Below are positions 2-63,780 of a stretch of DNA of 64,000 nt, piece after piece. Source of the DNA: Clostridia bacterium (lineage in GTDB: Bacteria > Bacillota > Clostridia > Christensenellales > CAG-138); NCBI GenBank assembly GCA_036652795.1, contig JAVVVD010000001.1, forward strand, positions 230,156-294,155, given 5' to 3'. Position 1 is the first letter of the stretch. Each line of letters begins with the position of its first letter. The translations under genes were made by a program, and so were the position numbers. The notes under the pieces were generated by a model. That model made no database searches and was not told where the DNA came from. It was given only the letters and a program-made list of their open reading frames with translations.

Positions 2-2215
2 GAGATAATATCAATAGATACATCTGCGGCCGAGGCTATGGGCGCGGTGTGTCTTACCTACGATGACATCAACCCAATAATCTACAATGAACGAAGTGTA
101 AGCATTCCTGCGGCAACATATCGGGATAGAACTGTGCTGCCAAAGAAGGCACGCCATGTTGGCGAACCAATTGCTGCAGTTGCAGCGGACACAGAGGAGC
201 TTGCCTCAAAGGCGCTAAAGGCGCTTAAAGTAGAGTATAAGGTGCTTGATGCGGTCTATGACCCGAAAGAAGCCATGAAAGATGGCGCGCCACAGCTCTA
301 TGATAAGATATATCTTGGCGATGAGGTTGTGGAAGTACATAACAATATAGGCGTTGTTCGCAACATTGACGAAGGTGATTGCGACGCAGGGTTTGCACAA
401 GCGGACAGGATATTTGAAGAGGATTTTGCTCTTGAACGTATCTATCACGCGCAGATGGAAACCAAAGGTGCGGTATGCAAACCTGAGCCTGACGGAACGC
501 TAACAGTTTGGACTACCGCACAATCCATCCATGCTAACAGGCAGCTGCTAGGACGTATACTTGGTATGCCGCTCTCCAAGATTAATGTTAAAAAGCTTCC
601 ATTTGGAGGTGCGTTTGGCTCATCAATACAGGTAAACACAGTAACGCCGATATGCGCCTGTATTGCGCTTAAGGCGCGTCGTCCTGTTAAACTCATATCC
701 ACGCGCGAAGACGATTTCTATAGCCATCAAAAATACCCTTCCCAATTCCACGTAAAGATAGGCGTTACAAACGATGGCGTAATAACGGCTGCGCACGTAA
801 CCGCGCTTGTGGATTTTGGCGCACACCAGGTGCAGCCACTTCCGTATATGGGTTGTGTGGCGGGTTGGTTTGCTTCCCTATATAAATATCAGGGTAATAT
901 CCGTTTTAACGGTACGGCAGTATATACAAACAAAACGCCATGCTGCGCAATGCAGGGCTATGGTAATCCACAGATTAACTTTGCTATTGAAAGTATGATA
1001 GATATGATAAGTGAGGAGATGGGTTTTAGCCCAATTGACTTCCGCTTGAAAAACTATCGTGGTGTAGGTGATGAATTCTGGGGGCAGGGGCCTACGATAC
1101 GCTCAATAATAAAGAGCTGCGGCGTAGAGGAGAGCCTTGTAGAAGGCCGCAAGGTCACTGATTTCGATAATCGCATAAAGCCGGATCAGAAAACCGGTGT
1201 AAAACGGCGCGGCCTTGGTGTTGCCCGCGGATTTCATTGCTCCGGTACAGGCGGCCCCAAGGAGGGCGAGGTAATAGATTATTCAAGTGCTACCGTAAAG
1301 ATCAATGAAGATGGATCCATTGATCTTATAACGCCGGTTACGGATCACGGCGGTGGAACATGGGACGCGTTGCGTAAAATAGTGTCAGAGGTGCTTCAGG
1401 TGCCGCTGGATATGGTAGGACTTTCACCAGCAGAAACAATGAATACCGGCTACGATGTATGCACCCATGCTACACGTGGCGTATATTGTGGCGGTGCGGC
1501 AGCATACCATGTTGCGATGAAAGTCAAAGAGCAATTGCTTGAGATGGCGGGTAAGCTGATGGCTGAGCATGCGTACAATCTGGAGGTTGTGCGTAATGAG
1601 GAGCTAAATCAGGGCGTAGTGCAGGTTAAGGGCTATCCGCAAAAAAACATGACGATAGGCTATATAGCTAAGCAGATGCAGATTATGAGTTGGGGTACTA
1701 TGCAGTATTGCGACAGCTATCGACAGCGCAACTGCCCGCCGTGTTTCACGACCCACTTCGTTGAGGTAGAGGTGGATACGGAAACAGGCATCATCTCAGT
1801 GCCGAGCGTACTTATCTATGGCGATTGTGGTGTTGCTATCAATCCAATGCTGGTAAAGGGTCAGCTTATAGGTTCGTTCAACCGTGGTTTCGGGTATACG
1901 GTATATGAGAACCTAGCGCTCAATGAAGCTACTGGCGCACTGTGCAATAATGGCCTGATGATAGACTATAAAACTCCCACAGCCGCAGAGATGCCGCTGA
2001 TAGGCAATGTCAGGGTGGAAATATGCCATACGAATGAACCTACGGGTCCATTTGGCGCAAAAGGAATAGGCGAAGCGGCGCTTGCAAGCGTACAGGCCGC
2101 GATAGCAAATGCGATATACAATGCTGTTGGCATAAGATTCACAAAGCTGCCAATAACTCCTGAAGTGATGCTTGCAGCGCTCAAGGAGAAGGCTAAGAAG
2201 GAGGCGAAGGCATGA
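2..2215 (+). CDS. Xanthine dehydrogenase-family molybdopterin-binding (large) subunit, 5'-truncated by the window edge
   Basis: Frame is open from base 2 (EIISIDTSAAEAM...). Motifs GEPIAAVAA, HAQMET, FGGAFGS, MQGYGNPQ, GAKGIGEA. Confidence 0.92.
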   Translation, partial: EIISIDTSAAEAMGAVCLTYDDINPIIYNERSVSIPAATYRDRTVLPKKARHVGEPIAAVAADTEELASKALKALKVEYKVLDAVYDPKEAMKDGAPQLYDKIYLGDEVVEVHNNIGVVRNIDEGDCDAGFAQADRIFEEDFALERIYHAQMETKGAVCKPEPDGTLTVWTTAQSIHANRQLLGRILGMPLSKINVKKLPFGGAFGSSIQVNTVTPICACIALKARRPVKLISTREDDFYSHQKYPSQFHVKIGVTNDGVITAAHVTALVDFGAHQVQPLPYMGCVAGWFASLYKYQGNIRFNGTAVYTNKTPCCAMQGYGNPQINFAIESMIDMISEEMGFSPIDFRLKNYRGVGDEFWGQGPTIRSIIKSCGVEESLVEGRKVTDFDNRIKPDQKTGVKRRGLGVARGFHCSGTGGPKEGEVIDYSSATVKINEDGSIDLITPVTDHGGGTWDALRKIVSEVLQVPLDMVGLSPAETMNTGYDVCTHATRGVYCGGAAAYHVAMKVKEQLLEMAGKLMAEHAYNLEVVRNEELNQGVVQVKGYPQKNMTIGYIAKQMQIMSWGTMQYCDSYRQRNCPPCFTTHFVEVEVDTETGIISVPSVLIYGDCGVAINPMLVKGQLIGSFNRGFGYTVYENLALNEATGALCNNGLMIDYKTPTAAEMPLIGNVRVEICHTNEPTGPFGAKGIGEAALASVQAAIANAIYNAVGIRFTKLPITPEVMLAALKEKAKKEAKA

Positions 2216-3105
2216 ATACCAAAATACTTGAAAGAGAATTCGATTATCTTAAGCCTGCGTCGCTGGATGAGGCTAAGGCTATCCTCTCGCAAAAGAAAAA
2301 TGTAAAAATATTTGCAGGCGGTACAGATCTTATAGTGAAGCTAAAGGTTGGCGCATCCATCGACATGGACAATATGATGGATATAAATGCCATTGATGAG
2401 CTTAAAAAGATTACTGACTGTACCGAGTGCCGCGGAGTAAAAATTGGCGCGGCCGCAAAACTTACGGTTATTGAAAATGATACGCGCGTGACAGAGAGGT
2501 TTCAAGCGCTGGCGGAGGCAATACACAAGATGGCGTCGGTGTCAGTGCGCAACATGGGCACACTTGGCGGGAATTTTTGCAATGCTTCGCCGGTAGCGGA
2601 TGCGGTTGGACCATGCATGTGCTATAACGCTAAGGTTGTTCTTGACAGCGTGCGAGGCGAGCGCAAGGTTGACGCGGTAGATTTCTTCGTTGCCCCGGGA
2701 GTTACCGTTATGGAGCAGGACGAAATACTTACACAAATATGCTTGCCATCGCCCGAAAAAAATACTGGTGCGGCTTTTATCAAGCTGGGACGCGTTGCTT
2801 CTGATATTGCTAAAATCAGCATTACATGCGTGATAGAGCGCGATGGAAATAAAATAAAGGTATGCCGTATGGCGATGGGTTCAGTTGCGGCAAGGCCGCT
2901 CTTCCTGAAAAACATAGCTGATCTGCTTGCGGGCAAGCAGGTAACCAGCGCACTGATAGCGGATACGGCAGATAAAATATCAGAGTTTATAAAACCAATA
3001 GATGATAACCGTACCACCGCACAGTATCGCACGGATGTGGCAAAGGTAATTGCAAGGGATTGCATCGAGCTGGCGTGGAAACGCAGCGGAGGTGAAGTAA
3101 AATGA
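2212..3105 (+). CDS. XDH/CoxM-family FAD-binding (medium) subunit, set 1
   Basis: AGGTDL, RNMGTLGGN..NASPVAD, PIDDNR..A.YR motifs; ATGA overlap with the upstream gene. Confidence 0.92.
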   Translation: MNTKILEREFDYLKPASLDEAKAILSQKKNVKIFAGGTDLIVKLKVGASIDMDNMMDINAIDELKKITDCTECRGVKIGAAAKLTVIENDTRVTERFQALAEAIHKMASVSVRNMGTLGGNFCNASPVADAVGPCMCYNAKVVLDSVRGERKVDAVDFFVAPGVTVMEQDEILTQICLPSPEKNTGAAFIKLGRVASDIAKISITCVIERDGNKIKVCRMAMGSVAARPLFLKNIADLLAGKQVTSALIADTADKISEFIKPIDDNRTTAQYRTDVAKVIARDCIELAWKRSGGEVK

Positions 3106-3584
3106 GCATGCATGAAATCACATTGAAGGTAAATGGCAAACAGCACACATTGACGGTAAAGAGCAATGAGCTACTTCTAAATGTGCTGCGGGATAGGTTA
3201 TATCTTACAGGCGCAAAGTACGGTTGCGGAATAGCGGAATGCGGCGCTTGTACTATACTGCATGATAAACAGAGCGTGTTAAGCTGCCTAATACCTGCAA
3301 TAGTAGCGGATGGCTGGGAGATAACTACGGCGGAAGGATTGGCTGATGGTAATAAACTTTCGCACGTGCAGCAGGCGTTCTTGGATAATGGCGCCATTCA
3401 GTGCGGATTCTGTACGCCTGGCATGGTTGTGACATCCACTGCGCTGCTAAATGAAAACCCAAACCCGGATGAAGAGTATATCAAGGATTATCTGCGTGGT
3501 AATTACTGCCGCTGCACAGGGTATATATCAATAGTAAATGCAGTAAAAGACGCTGCAGACCGGATGAAGGAGGAAAAGGCATGA
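3102..3584 (+). CDS. XDH/CoxS-family 2Fe-2S (small) subunit, set 1
   Basis: GCGIAECGAC, QCGFCTPG, GNYCRCTGY. Confidence 0.95.
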   Translation: MSMHEITLKVNGKQHTLTVKSNELLLNVLRDRLYLTGAKYGCGIAECGACTILHDKQSVLSCLIPAIVADGWEITTAEGLADGNKLSHVQQAFLDNGAIQCGFCTPGMVVTSTALLNENPNPDEEYIKDYLRGNYCRCTGYISIVNAVKDAADRMKEEKA

Positions 3585-4441
3585 AGAACTTCGAGTATAT
3601 AAACGCATCCACATTAACAGATGCGCTAAAAGCGCTTGATGAGCTTGGCGAAAAGGCATTTCTTGTTGCCGGCGGCACCAATGTAATGGTGTATATACGT
3701 TCTGGCAAGCGAAATGATCGTACGCTTGTGAATATTCGGGGTATAGATGAGCTTAGAGGCATATCTGTGGATAACGGCGTGGTATGTATAGGTGCGCTTA
3801 CAACACTTACACAGATAAGCAAATCCGAAACACTCAAGGTTAACGCGCCAGGCCTGTATGCTGCCGGTAATGTGTTTGCAGACCCAACCACACGCAACAG
3901 TGCAACCATAGGCGGTAATGTTGCCAATGCCGGAGCAGGCGGTGACACGATACCATCGCTTATGGTGCTAAACGCGGTGGCGCATCTTAAATCGCTTAAT
4001 GGTGGGCGCGAGATACCGGTTTGTGATTTGTTCACAGGACCTGGTAGGACATGCATGGCTCCCAATGAGATACTTACACACTTTACATTTAAAGCAGAGC
4101 CTCATATTGGATTCATAAAGATGAGCATGCGAAACTCAATGTCAATCGCCATGGCTTCGGCGGCCGCATATGTGAAGCTGGAGGCAGATGGCACGATAGC
4201 GGATTGCCGATTGGCGCTCGGTGCTGTTGCGCCTACGCCGGTACGTGCGCGTAATGCTGAAAAGGCACTAATAGGCAACAAACTTGATGATGCGACTTTT
4301 GCACATATGGGTGAAGAGGTTCAGAAGGACATGAATCCGCGGGAGCCATCAGTACGCGCTACCGTAACTTATAGGCGCGAGGTGATGCCAGTGCTTGTGA
4401 AGCGTGCTCTTAAACTCGCCGCATATGGCGAGTGCATGTAA
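3581..4441 (+). CDS. XDH/CoxM-family FAD-binding subunit, set 2
   Basis: AGGTNV, RNSATIGGN, ALGAVAPTP motifs. Confidence 0.9.
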   Translation: MKNFEYINASTLTDALKALDELGEKAFLVAGGTNVMVYIRSGKRNDRTLVNIRGIDELRGISVDNGVVCIGALTTLTQISKSETLKVNAPGLYAAGNVFADPTTRNSATIGGNVANAGAGGDTIPSLMVLNAVAHLKSLNGGREIPVCDLFTGPGRTCMAPNEILTHFTFKAEPHIGFIKMSMRNSMSIAMASAAAYVKLEADGTIADCRLALGAVAPTPVRARNAEKALIGNKLDDATFAHMGEEVQKDMNPREPSVRATVTYRREVMPVLVKRALKLAAYGECM

Positions 4442-23796: not shown

Positions 23797-24417
23797 ATGC
23801 ACACACAAAAAGAAGGTTTATTGGTAGTCATATCTGGACCTTCCGGAGTAGGCAAAGGAGCTATATTCAAAGGACTGATGCAGCGGAATCCAGGCATTAA
23901 ATTTTCTGTATCCGCAACTACCAGAGCACCGCGTCCTGGTGAGGTAGATGGGAGAGACTATCGCTTCATGCCTGTTGAAAAGTTCGAAAACATGATAACG
24001 AATGATGAGTTTTTAGAGTATACAAACGTATTTGGCACTCACTATTATGGCACGCCTAAGGAAACTGTGCGCAGGGAAATGGATGCAGGCAACGATATAG
24101 TGCTTGAGATAGATGTACGCGGCGCAATGAACATAAAACGTGTATGCAGTAAAGCAGTGGCGATATTTATAGCACCACCATCTATGCAGATCCTAAAATC
24201 TCGCCTTGTGGGGCGCCATACAGAAACGCAGGAAGCAATAGAACGCAGATTTAAACGGGCTTATGAAGAAATGAAGTGCATTGAACAGTATGATTATATT
24301 GTGATAAACGATGTTTTGGATACAGCGGTGTCACAGGTGGAGAGCATAATAATTGCGGAACATGCGAGTGTATGCCGCAATGCCGCATTGGTAAAGGAAT
24401 TGCAAGGAGGAAATTAA
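23797..24417 (+). CDS. gmk: Guanylate kinase
   Basis: SGPSGVGK, SVSATTR.PRPGEVDG.DY. Confidence 0.96.
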   Translation: MHTQKEGLLVVISGPSGVGKGAIFKGLMQRNPGIKFSVSATTRAPRPGEVDGRDYRFMPVEKFENMITNDEFLEYTNVFGTHYYGTPKETVRREMDAGNDIVLEIDVRGAMNIKRVCSKAVAIFIAPPSMQILKSRLVGRHTETQEAIERRFKRAYEEMKCIEQYDYIVINDVLDTAVSQVESIIIAEHASVCRNAALVKELQGGN

Positions 24418-61684: not shown

Positions 61685-62302
61685 CTAAAATCGCCGTATA
61701 AGTCCGATTACCTTACCAACGATTTCAACATTCGATGGTGCAATGAATATAGGCTCCATGCTTGAATTTTCAGGCTGGAGTTTTATTATATTTTTTTCGA
61801 AGAATATGCGCTTTACAGTAGCCGTGTCATCGTTTACGCGCACAACAGCAATATCACCATTACCAACGGTTATACCGGAATGGATCAATATCATATCTCC
61901 GTTAAGTATTCCAGCCTCAATCATACTTTCACCTTCAACACTTAGCAAAAATACTTCTCCAGCCTCTGCTCCGTGCAACAATGACGCAGGCAGCGGAAAA
62001 GTATCCTGTATATTATCATAGGCCAGTATAGGTTCGCCGGCAGCAACAGAGCCAACAAGAGGCACAGGCTTAACGACAGATGTATCCGTAGCATATGGAA
62101 GTGTTATTGAACGTTGTTTTGATGGGTTAAGTCTTATTAGCCCCGATTCCGCAAGGGCTTTTAGGTGTGCATGAACAGTAGAGGTAGACTTTAGCCCAAC
62201 TGCCGCACCAATTTCGCGCACTGTAGGTGGGAATGCTCTTTGGTTTATATAGGATTGTATAAATTCATATATTGAATTTTGCATTTTACCGAGGTTTGGC
62301 AT
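61685..62302 (-). CDS. lexA: SOS repressor LexA
   Basis: PPTVREIG.AVGL.STSTVH.HL, VAAGEP cleavage site, GESM, ATVKR. Confidence 0.96.
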   Translation of the reverse strand: MPNLGKMQNSIYEFIQSYINQRAFPPTVREIGAAVGLKSTSTVHAHLKALAESGLIRLNPSKQRSITLPYATDTSVVKPVPLVGSVAAGEPILAYDNIQDTFPLPASLLHGAEAGEVFLLSVEGESMIEAGILNGDMILIHSGITVGNGDIAVVRVNDDTATVKRIFFEKNIIKLQPENSSMEPIFIAPSNVEIVGKVIGLIRRF

Positions 62303-62356: not shown

Positions 62357-62385
62357 AGTATAACACATTGAAATCCGAAATACAA
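62357..62385 (-). promoter_or_regulatory. Predicted lexA promoter
   Basis: Minus strand TTGTAT-17 bp-TATACT; the -35 element overlaps the SOS box. Confidence 0.6.
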
Positions 62386-62396
62386 ACATTTGTTCG
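62383..62396. promoter_or_regulatory. LexA (SOS/Cheo) box
   Basis: CAAACATTTGTTCG equals CGAACAAATGTTTG on the minus strand, matching the Firmicute consensus CGAAC-N4-GTTYG. Confidence 0.85.
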
Positions 62397-62408: not shown

Positions 62409-62648
62409 GTGGAAAAAGATGATTTTGAATCTGATATTTGTGACCTTGACCCAAATAAAATATGTGACAACTGCTGTCGTTGCCTTGATCTTGATGAGCG
62501 CGACTATAATACAGTGCTTGCGGATTTCTTATATGAGGATACCTTAATCGAATGCGTCGAGCAGGATCATTTTGCAGCACATCGTTGTATGGAGATTAAT
62601 ACCATTTATGGCGTGGCGGGGAAGCGAGGAAAGCAGAAAAATGAGTAG
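62409..62648 (+). CDS. Small acidic Cys-rich hypothetical protein
   Basis: GTG start after AGAGGTG; CDLDPNKICDNCCRC motif; fills the lexA-recombinase gap. Confidence 0.7.
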   Translation: MEKDDFESDICDLDPNKICDNCCRCLDLDERDYNTVLADFLYEDTLIECVEQDHFAAHRCMEINTIYGVAGKRGKQKNE

Positions 62649-62654
62649 GCAACC

Positions 62655-63710
62655 TTATTCATCACGTAGTTTGATTACCTTTGCCGCCAACCTACGCCGG
62701 TCCTCTGAAACGGCGGCGTAGTGCTTGCGTGTGGTATTAACATCCTTATGTCCAAGCACATCTGCTACTAGATATATATCTCCGGTTTCGCGATAAAGTG
62801 CAGTTCCATATGTGCTGCGCAGCTTGTGCGGTGATATACATTTAAGCGGTGTGGCAATACTGGCATACTTTTTTACAAGGTTTTCTACTGCGCGTACGCT
62901 TATGCGCTTGTTTTGCAGTGATAGGAACATTGCATCCTCATAGCCAGGGACTGCGCTTATCCGTTCACGATCCAGCATGTAATCTAATAGCGCAGCGCGC
63001 GCCTCATCGCCAAATACTAGTATATCTTGATTACCACCCTTGCGTATTATCGAAAATTCATTTGCTGAAAAATTTATGTCATCCATATCTATCCCAACAA
63101 GCTCGCTGATACGTATACCAGTGCCAAGAAACAGCGTGAGGATTGCTAGGTCGCGCGATTGTGTTCTGGCATGGTACTCCTTTTGTTTATCGGTAAGTCC
63201 ATTTCCATTTTGTACAACATCAAGTAGGTTTGCCACCTCTTCGGGTTCAAGTCGGATTATGGATTTTTCATGTATTGTTGGCAGATCCACAAGGGCAGGG
63301 GAGTTAGTTGTAAGTTTTTCTTTTTTAAGAAAGTATTTATAAAATGATCGCAGTGTAGCTAATTTTCGCGCCTTGGCGCGTTCTTGATTTATTACTTCAT
63401 TATCGTATTTATCAATATATAAAGAGAGATAGGTTAGATACATTTCAATATGCGTGGTTGTTACATGATCCAATTCGGAAAGTGTGATGGAAGCTATATT
63501 ATCATGTTTAAAATCAGCCTGCTCACTTATAAGGTATTTAAAAAATGTACGTAAATCAACAGCATACGCATAACGCGTACGTACAAGAGTGTTGTTTTCT
63601 ATTCCCATAAAAAATTCTGTGCAAAACGGCGGCAGCTCATGAAGCAGCTCACGTATTTTTAACAGATATGTCTTATATTCAGCACCAGCGAAGTTATCCG
63701 GCATAAGCAT
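62655..63710 (-). CDS. Tyrosine recombinase, XerS-like
   Basis: Catalytic set intact: TGIRISE (R), RKGG (K), PHKLRST (HxxR), LGH, KHY. 351 aa with an N-terminus resembling streptococcal XerS (from memory of that sequence). Confidence 0.9.
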   Translation of the reverse strand: MLMPDNFAGAEYKTYLLKIRELLHELPPFCTEFFMGIENNTLVRTRYAYAVDLRTFFKYLISEQADFKHDNIASITLSELDHVTTTHIEMYLTYLSLYIDKYDNEVINQERAKARKLATLRSFYKYFLKKEKLTTNSPALVDLPTIHEKSIIRLEPEEVANLLDVVQNGNGLTDKQKEYHARTQSRDLAILTLFLGTGIRISELVGIDMDDINFSANEFSIIRKGGNQDILVFGDEARAALLDYMLDRERISAVPGYEDAMFLSLQNKRISVRAVENLVKKYASIATPLKCISPHKLRSTYGTALYRETGDIYLVADVLGHKDVNTTRKHYAAVSEDRRRLAAKVIKLRDE

Positions 63711-63746
63711 TTAATCTCCAATTTATTATACTTAACATCATATCAC

Positions 63747-63780
63747 AACTATTCGTTAAAGACAAGTTTAACGAATAGTT
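63747..63780. repeat. Perfect 14-6-14 inverted repeat, candidate recombinase (dif-like) site
   Basis: AACTATTCGTTAAA-GACAAG-TTTAACGAATAGTT, 36 bp upstream of the recombinase start codon. Confidence 0.7.

Follow-up and report, generated by a model that had tools for sequence, protein, structure and literature searches.

A predicted single-recombinase Xer/dif module with symmetric arms at the replication terminus of a gut Clostridia lineage

We describe a gene and an adjoining 34-bp palindrome from a Clostridia bacterium (Christensenellales; CAG-138; assembly GCA_036652795.1), which together form a predicted Xer/dif module of the XerS/difSL kind, where a single tyrosine recombinase would resolve chromosome dimers at a symmetric site in the replication terminus. 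Both lie near the right end of the window, by which we mean the whole 64,000-nucleotide stretch analysed (contig JAVVVD010000001.1, here G000:C1:230156-294155); contig C1 is 430 kb long, and the assembly holds 1,818,431 bp in 51 contigs and is 93% complete. We put the probability of this interpretation at roughly 0.8. It rests on computation, namely on the anatomy and conservation of the site, its position at the terminus, its single copy and the failure to find a partner recombinase. Chromosome dimer resolution had been proposed in a preliminary description of the locus, and every computational check run on that proposal (conservation, skew, copy number, absence of xerCD, core flanks) supports it. 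The features that carry the argument are the following:

62655..63710, minus strand: XerS-like tyrosine recombinase, 351 aa (possibly 349 aa from the ATG at 63704), identified by Pfam, NCBIfam and invariant residues.
63747..63780 (C1:293,902-293,935), no strand: candidate dif site, 34 bp in a 14-6-14 layout, identified by its perfect repeat, single copy and conserved footprint.
63747-63760, 63761-63766 and 63767-63780: left arm, central region and right arm of that site.
63493 (C1:293,648), no strand: maximum of cumulative G minus C along contig C1, the replication-arm switch.

The site, AACTATTCGTTAAA-GACAAG-TTTAACGAATAGTT, is composed of two 14-bp arms in perfect inverted repeat round six asymmetric bases, which read GACAAG on the forward strand and CTTGTC in the sense of the recombinase gene. 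The letters thus bear out the palindrome first noticed upstream of a lone 351-aa recombinase: the repeat ends 36 bp from the first ATG of the gene (63710), or 42 bp from the alternative one. None of the window's listed open reading frames of at least 50 aa covers the site, which is therefore intergenic, and its G+C content is 26% as compared with 45% for the window. With up to two mismatches allowed, the arm is found at these two places only within the window; the exact arm occurs nowhere else in the 51 contigs, the nearest other sequence in the genome being a lone arm with one mismatch on contig C2, and the site, whose copy number the preliminary description had marked for checking, is single-copy in the assembly.

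Cumulative G minus C climbs steadily along the contig to C1:293,648 and then declines; the site is 254 bp from this peak and inside the plateau that stays within 60 of the maximum (C1:291,307-295,203), and gene orientation flips from plus to minus at the same place. The terminus location envisaged for the module agrees with this skew inversion, as it does with the distance between dnaA and the recombinase orthologue, which amounts to ~49-53% of the chromosome in all five complete chromosomes examined (sizes rounded except that of G041):

G012: ~2.4 Mb; dnaA at 285,483; orthologue at 1,559,462; separation ~52-53%.
G033: ~2.4 Mb; dnaA at 1,254,057; orthologue at 24,210; separation ~51%.
G028: ~2.6 Mb; dnaA at 910,801; orthologue at 2,269,470; separation ~52%.
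G041, a Christensenellaceae chromosome: 3,703,795 bp; dnaA at 3,240,346; orthologue at ~1,419,000; separation 49%.
G219: ~3.1 Mb; dnaA at 1,015,606; orthologue at 2,528,283; separation ~49%.

The locus therefore displays the hallmarks of a dif-type site: a single copy per chromosome, an intergenic location of G+C content below that of the genome, a terminus position where strand composition switches sign and, across the 82 distinct sites discussed below, conserved inverted repeats round a variable centre in the 6-8 bp range. These are the criteria by which difSL and difH were defined in print (PMC1914069, PMC2731167; papers are cited here by PMC number and from excerpts of their text).

The recombinase combines the Pfam domains Phage_integrase (PF00589) and Phage_int_SAM_1. 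Public copies start at residue 3 of the 351-aa frame, and the true start may be the ATG at 63704. Residues R200, K224, H295, R298, H321 and Y331, which we take from the known family motif to be the catalytic R-K-H-R-H-Y set, are invariant in an alignment of 19 orthologues. The top NCBIfam model is XerS (NF003462, an equivalog) at 192.7 bits, and it is likewise the best model for 19 of 19 orthologues (best E value 9.5e-63), followed by XerD at 146.2 bits (cut-off 329.6), XerC at 145.9 (cut-off 335.15) and archaeal XerA at 144.4; the two paralogues of an XerC/XerD system are thus not seen. The XerS resemblance claimed in the preliminary description holds insofar as XerS is the best match, but the protein is not XerS by the NCBI cut-off of 267 bits. 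Nor is that cut-off reached by any of 110 full-length representatives scanned (from the best 150 of 34,809 library hits; 39-54% identity), the best of which score 232-233 bits, and true XerS therefore lies below ~39% identity to the window's protein. The family numbers 803 library representatives at E≤1e-30, and because its database names disagree ('tyrosine-type recombinase/integrase' from the NCBI pipeline, 'XerD' in one JGI record, 'XerS' from one depositor) it is not curated. An AlphaFold2 model (mean predicted local distance difference test score, pLDDT, 85.6) has XerA, XerD and XerH as its closest solved folds, with solved Cre structures ranking far below the Xer proteins, and this search marks the modelled protein as a two-domain Xer-type recombinase. 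Among solved structures searched by sequence, E. coli XerD comes out best (E 1e-16) and XerH is weaker (4.5e-8).

A PF00589 profile search of the genome returns two places, the recombinase gene and a broken integrase remnant, which leaves the former as the sole intact gene of its kind, and a search with the XerD model at E≤1 returns nothing besides it. The description of a lone recombinase stands for the 93% complete assembly, in which no xerC, xerD or other intact tyrosine recombinase was found. The orthologue is also the sole PF00589 gene in three relatives (G018, G021 and G032; 93-99% complete), and 34 of 41 genomes (the window's own and its relatives, one of the same genus included) are without an XerD-like hit at E≤1e-50. 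Of 201 genomes sampled evenly across the class, 29 carry the orthologue and 166 an XerD-like gene at E≤1e-55; the latter is present in 156 of the 172 genomes without the orthologue and missing from 19 of the 29 with it, as well as from all eight sampled genomes of the window's order, a contrast that is descriptive only, the genomes being kin. The orthologue family thus mostly replaces XerC/XerD and sometimes coexists with XerD, and it is not always alone. Where the two coexist, the XerD-like gene can be only 2-35 kb from the orthologue (G219:C1:2,508,682; G167:C1:152,409; G233:C17:11,076; G029:C1:970,080), and is therefore also near the terminus. Two relatives (G036 and G039; 95-96% complete, 1.4-1.6 Mb) show no tyrosine recombinase of any kind and no site; either they lack Xer recombination or their terminus region is unassembled.

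Conservation of the site follows that of the gene. The orthologue (51-79% identity) is present in 36 of 40 relatives of the same genus, family and order, the others having a weak hit only (G003) or none (G015, G036, G039). An inverted-repeat scan of up to 400 bp upstream finds the palindrome in 20 of 30 loci, and a relaxed half-site search finds a plausible site in ~26 of the 30, with partly asymmetric arms in the more distant relatives. When 41 genomes are searched in full with the 28-bp pattern TATKCGYWAAA-N6-TTTWRCGMATA and up to two mismatches, 33 give a match, and in 32 of them the best match is upstream of the orthologue on the same contig, at a distance of 38 bp to 3.8 kb; the pattern read backwards, as a control, matches in four. 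A second match occurs in five of the 41 genomes, each time with 1-2 mismatches. The four relatives without the orthologue (G003, G015, G036, G039) have no site by this pattern. G006 carries a variant with altered outer arm bases, missed by the pattern and seen by the half-site search, and in G019 and G040, which give no match, the orthologue stands at a contig start with less than 450 bp of upstream DNA.

The linkage extends well beyond the order. A one-genome-per-species scan yields at least 597 relatives, with record titles that name Christensenella, Christensenellaceae, Lachnospiraceae (Roseburia, Enterocloster, Hungatella, Acetatifactor), Oscillospiraceae, Caldicoprobacterales, Vallitaleaceae and others. 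Among 80 named Clostridia loci, 57 have the site within 3 kb of the orthologue (56 upstream, one downstream, L076), compared with 0-4 in 20 shuffles and three for the reversed pattern, and the linkage is therefore beyond chance; 46 of 84 sites fall within 150 bp of the start codon, the median distance being 89 bp. Conservation upstream of orthologues, on which the preliminary description had staked its proposal, is thus observed in 32 of the 41 genomes and 57 of the 80 named loci, and the module occurs in Christensenellales, Lachnospiraceae and other Clostridia. In six Lachnospiraceae loci (L057, L063, L064, L074, L075 and L079) a conserved open reading frame of ~240 aa (MxLQKLLSYxRxAVDDY...) stands between the site and the recombinase gene, so that the site there precedes a two-gene unit.

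Alignment of 82 distinct sites, each with 12 bp of flank on either side, delimits the footprint. Information content is 1.0-2.0 bits per position in the arms, 0.6-0.8 in the six central bases and ~0-0.4 in the flanks, and the AAC and GTT triplets, which lie outside the search pattern, carry 1.2-1.6 bits; because these triplets are conserved and the signal drops beyond them, the conserved unit is 14-6-14. In 36 of the 82 sites the two 11-bp arm cores mirror each other perfectly; in the other 46 they differ at 1-4 positions, and it is thus the sequence, not its pairing, that is under conservation. Fully palindromic arms, as originally claimed, are accordingly a property of the window's site and of part of the lineage, but not of those 46 sites. 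Of 84 sites, 75 have a central region of the CTTGTC type, but the centre varies greatly among Lachnospiraceae.

The same arms are found on other replicons. A blastn search of plasmids with the site gives 39 records: 33 Bacillus cereus group megaplasmids, three from Cytobacillus, one from Roseburia, one uncultured 3.1-kb plasmid and one partial Shinella record. B. cereus pBCM301 (L121) has AACTGTTCGTTAAA-tacatt-TTTAACGAATAGTT 187 bp upstream of an annotated xerS, in the 14-6-14 layout and with arms that match those of the window at 27 of 28 positions, and a second copy with a different spacer follows 578 bp from the first:

pBCM301: sites at 3001-3034 and 3579-3612; xerS at 1728-2813, minus strand.

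The pBCM301 protein scores 468.8 bits on the XerS model and is hence a bona fide XerS, which together with its sites presumably serves plasmid multimer resolution and not the chromosome. We found no study of the B. cereus group plasmid XerS site in the literature. With this protein as query, tblastn returns 912 plasmid records at E≤1e-40, mostly from Bacillus and Enterococcus, and among the matches listed the genes are annotated xerS. That these arms accompany XerS-type recombinases on different replicon types, and even where the proteins are very distant, is the strongest single argument that the recombinase is what would read them. On pBMB293 and one Cytobacillus plasmid no recombinase is listed within 2.5 kb of the site, in gene tables that are incomplete. 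The 3.1-kb uncultured plasmid pRGI00704 (L122) has a site at 507-540 with two mismatches in one arm and no recombinase gene, as would be expected if the plasmid resolved its multimers with an Xer enzyme borrowed from the host.

Phage genomes make up a further set. At least 117 IMG/VR contigs match a stricter version of the pattern exactly, and of 80 such loci examined (L127-L206; for example L143:784-811, L145:1056-1083 and L200:2873-2900) 70 have AAC and 54 have GTT beside it; because of these flanking triplets the matches are taken as full sites. They carry 51 different spacers, and a recombinase orthologue is encoded in none of the 80 DNA stretches examined. The sampled contigs are tailed phages with terminase and portal genes, and of the 40 loci with a TerL-like hit, 39 have the site upstream of terL, at a median distance of 841 bp. 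After strand collapsing, seven of 43 phage spacers coincide with one of 28 chromosomal spacers, as against a crude expectation of ~0.6 for random hexamers. The phages and plasmids that carry the site may be served in trans by the host's enzyme. More tentatively, and with the odds rather against it, the site could be a shared recombination address: tailed phages of gut and rumen Clostridia, and some plasmids, would do without a recombinase of their own and borrow the XerS-like enzyme of the host, two copies in terminally redundant ends would be recombined into a circle, as with Cre/loxP of phage P1 but by an enzyme of the host, and phages with the spacer of a host's dif could instead integrate at that dif.

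The genes around the module are those of a chromosomal core. On its left, the recombinase gene is preceded by four plus-strand genes, mutS, mutL, miaA and hfq, after which come a methionine gamma-lyase-like gene and the minus-strand lexA; on its right, past the window edge, RNase H, a dipeptidase, rny, recA, cinA, pgsA, rimO and ftsK all run on the minus strand. Pfam confirms the identity of lexA, of the lyase-like gene, of RNase H and of FtsK, and the other names were read off translations. FtsK, with its 4TM, alpha, motor and gamma domains, is encoded at C1:301,768-304,236, 8 kb from the site. There are no phage, transposon or conjugation genes near the recombinase gene, either in the window or among the core genes beyond its edge, and since these core genes continue, the fear that the recombinase gene marks the edge of a mobile element is excluded. 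The closest conserved neighbour is context and not machinery:

61685..62302, minus strand: lexA, conserved downstream neighbour (Pfam LexA_DNA_bind and Peptidase_S24).

It is found within the flanks examined in 66 of 110 orthologue loci. Divergent from it, at window positions 62409-62648 on the plus strand, is a Cys-rich open reading frame of 79 aa with no Pfam match, which 37 of 110 loci retain at this place between lexA and the recombinase gene. Between this frame and lexA a LexA-box-like sequence, CAAACATTTGTTCG, occupies 62383-62396; the small protein may be SOS-controlled. A scan with the LexA box consensus finds one box in the lexA promoter region and none within three mismatches upstream of the recombinase gene. 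As for the second PF00589 place in the genome, we considered it as a decayed xerD and rejected it: the short phage-type integrase remnant of 83 residues, with two stop codons, lies at G000:C1:332850-333098 (L120:1387-1578), ~39 kb from the terminus, and adjoins an insertion sequence (IS)-type transposase fragment and what we read as a tRNA gene.

By analogy with XerS/difSL and XerCD/dif we propose that two XerS-like monomers would bind the two 14-bp arms of each sister site, four subunits in all, and that the two sister sites would synapse at the terminus. One strand pair would then be swapped at one edge of the 6-bp centre to give a Holliday junction, and exchange of the second pair would resolve the junction and convert the chromosome dimer to monomers. 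FtsK is the probable activator, which at the division septum would bring the sites together and trigger the reaction. Because the arms are identical, one protein would serve on both sides and direction would be given by the asymmetric centre only, as in Cre/loxP; the asymmetry for which XerS, XerH and XerCD rely on their arms would have to come from these bases alone or else from the side on which FtsK arrives.

The site also overlaps or abuts what may be the promoter of its own recombinase gene:

63737..63765, minus strand: promoter-like hexamers for the recombinase gene (TTGTCT, 17 nt, TG-TATGAT), a consensus match only.

The TTGTCT hexamer lies within the central region and the first base of the proximal arm, and with such an arrangement the enzyme would probably limit its own synthesis. 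Of 45 sites up to 150 bp from the start of the gene, 37 have CTTGTC on its sense strand, compared with nine of 30 further off, the genomes compared being kin and not independent. For difSL, Le Bourgeois et al. speculated on a recombinase that covers its own promoter (PMC1914069). In two loci, L009 and L036, the full site is 250-320 bp upstream and a lone left-arm copy, ACTATTCGTTAAA, stands right before a promoter-like box, TGGTATACT, beside the gene; this lone arm may have been left behind by a small insertion into the site, or may be a regulatory half-site that was kept.

Such observations raise the question of whether the palindrome is a regulatory element of the recombinase gene and nothing else, be it an operator, a promoter element or a hairpin in the 5' leader, with the recombinase acting elsewhere. 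The 36-bp distance to the start codon, the overlapping hexamers, the mostly constant orientation of the centre near the gene (37 of 45) and the lone arm beside the promoter in L009 and L036, with the full site a further 250-320 bp upstream, would all suit a regulator; a pure regulator, however, needs neither a place at the skew switch nor uniqueness in the genome, and it accounts poorly for a linkage that persists at 0.8-3.8 kb with genes in between, for the conservation of primary sequence irrespective of pairing, and for the same site on plasmids and phage contigs without an adjoining recombinase gene. Moreover, no other candidate target for the sole tyrosine recombinase was seen. We thus regard a purely regulatory role as improbable, while regulation and recombination by the same site are not mutually exclusive. 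A slim chance likewise attaches to a two-recombinase system whose XerD-like partner is missing from the incomplete assembly: the 93% completeness, the ten orthologue-bearing genomes of the class sample (of 29) that have an XerD-like gene too, several of them 2-35 kb away, and two relatives with XerD above the cut-off speak for it, whereas the identical arms fit one protein, XerD-like hits are absent from 34 of the 41 genomes and from all eight of the order at the respective thresholds, no tyrosine recombinase other than the orthologue was found in three relatives of 93-99% completeness, and G029 combines an XerD with perfectly symmetric 11-bp arm cores.

Two further explanations have very little probability. 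The recombinase might be the integrase of a mobile element and the palindrome its attachment site, as the Pfam name Phage_integrase, the occurrence of the site on phage contigs and plasmids, and its place beside the gene (a layout that Le Bourgeois et al. liken, for xerS, to that of integration modules; PMC1914069) would suggest. Yet core genes flank the module on both sides, each genome has one site and not two round an element, the best profile and fold matches are Xer recombinases, and the orthologue is opposite dnaA in five of five complete chromosomes, present in 36 of 40 relatives and often next to lexA (66 of 110 loci); the mobile genes, paired attachment sites and patchy distribution of phage integrases or integrative and conjugative elements are thus not found. 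Equally remote is a binding site for a replication terminator or another terminus-specific protein, linked to the gene by position only. It would explain the location at the skew switch, but the linkage to an XerS-type gene holds on a Bacillus plasmid too, in its 14-6-14 layout and variable 6-bp centre the site is like the core sites of tyrosine recombinases, and replication-terminator systems use several oriented sites, where a single copy is found here.

A number of results nevertheless weigh against the single-recombinase dimer-resolution module that we favour. The protein stays below the XerS cut-off, and its identity to the pBCM301 XerS is 31%, in the catalytic domain only. A second recombinase could be unassembled, given 93% completeness in 51 contigs; G025 and G029 encode an XerD above the NCBI cut-off, and ten of the 29 orthologue-bearing genomes of the class sample have both genes. 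As to linkage, the sole pattern match of G032 is on a contig other than that of the orthologue, G031 has the orthologue and no site found by the 28-bp pattern, and 23 of the 80 named loci have no site within the DNA stretch examined. The six promoter-like pairs found in the region compare with 5.2 expected from shuffles, no better than chance. Finally, the most skewed leading-strand 7-mers and 8-mers are G-rich (GAGGTGGA, 98 to 8; GAGGCGG, 285 to 38), and as counts uncorrected for gene orientation, coding bias and GC skew they lend no support to FtsK guidance.

Chromosome dimer resolution is treated as near-universal. If the proposal is right, the module adds one more system to the few with a single recombinase, in large and medically studied groups of gut anaerobes (Christensenella, Roseburia, Enterocloster, Hungatella), and it would be a predicted form of dimer-resolution machinery hitherto undescribed for this gut Clostridia lineage. 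Its symmetric arms pose a question that the asymmetric difSL and difH cannot, namely how the order of strand exchange and control by FtsK would be set when the six central bases alone are asymmetric. The site marks the terminus in draft genomes; the module, being one gene and 34 bp, may become a tool for site-specific recombination in Clostridia; and the copies of the site on phages and plasmids hint at a pool of dependent elements.

The single-recombinase systems described so far, and named as such, are XerS, XerH, XerL and archaeal XerA (PMC5357621, PMC9765430). XerS/difSL of the Streptococcaceae (PMC1914069, PMC2965235) comes closest, with one recombinase of ~350 aa, FtsK present, and a single-copy site directly upstream of the gene, as at 36 bp here, and at the GC-skew switch; the left half of L. 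lactis difSL, ATCTTTCCGAAAA, resembles the window's left arm AACTATTCGTTAAA, as does the streptococcal difSL as printed, ATCTTTCCGAAAAACTGTAATTTTCTTGACA, which is shorter and asymmetric. In contrast, the window's host belongs to another bacterial class and its protein remains below the XerS cut-off (192.7 vs. 267 bits), and difSL is a 31-bp minimal site with unequal, imperfect arms and asymmetric XerS binding, whereas the present site has 34 bp, equal and identical 14-bp arms and a 6-bp centre, and so departs from the 31-bp layout with unequal repeats. The distinctness from difSL and difH asserted in the preliminary description is therefore upheld as far as equal, identical arms are concerned, but nearly the same arms beside a bona fide xerS on a B. 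cereus plasmid mean that they are not peculiar to Clostridia.

The XerH/difH system of Campylobacterota (PMC2731167, PMC5357621) also has one recombinase of comparable length and a site close to both gene and skew peak, with inverted repeats, A-rich at their inner ends, round a variable hexanucleotide; it differs in its arm sequences, and of the solved structures XerD and XerA match the window's protein better in sequence than XerH does. XerL/dif of Legionellales (PMC9765430) likewise pairs a single recombinase with a dif of long uninterrupted inverted repeats, but in L. pneumophila xerL and dif are more than 400 kb apart, whereas gene and site adjoin here, and XerL is undetectable as an Xer homologue by sequence, whereas the window's protein is plainly Xer-like. 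Kono et al. (PMC3025954) predicted dif in 97 of 100 Firmicutes from a B. subtilis seed, and only in genomes with XerCD orthologues; their supplementary tables, which cover Firmicutes including Clostridia, may already contain this site for some genomes. Full-text searches, with subscription journals outside their coverage, turned up neither a single-recombinase Xer system nor a difSL-like site described from Clostridia, Lachnospiraceae or Christensenellaceae.

In its geometry the site is matched by that of a phage system, Cre/loxP of P1, where one phage-encoded recombinase acts on symmetric arms, direction comes from the 8-bp spacer alone, and loxP lies near pac. Symmetric arms, a direction that would come from the spacer only and a single recombinase are common to both, and the position of the phage-contig sites near packaging genes recalls that of loxP near pac; what sets them apart is the length of the spacer, eight bases there and six here, and Cre itself, which is encoded by the phage and distant in sequence from the XerS-like protein.

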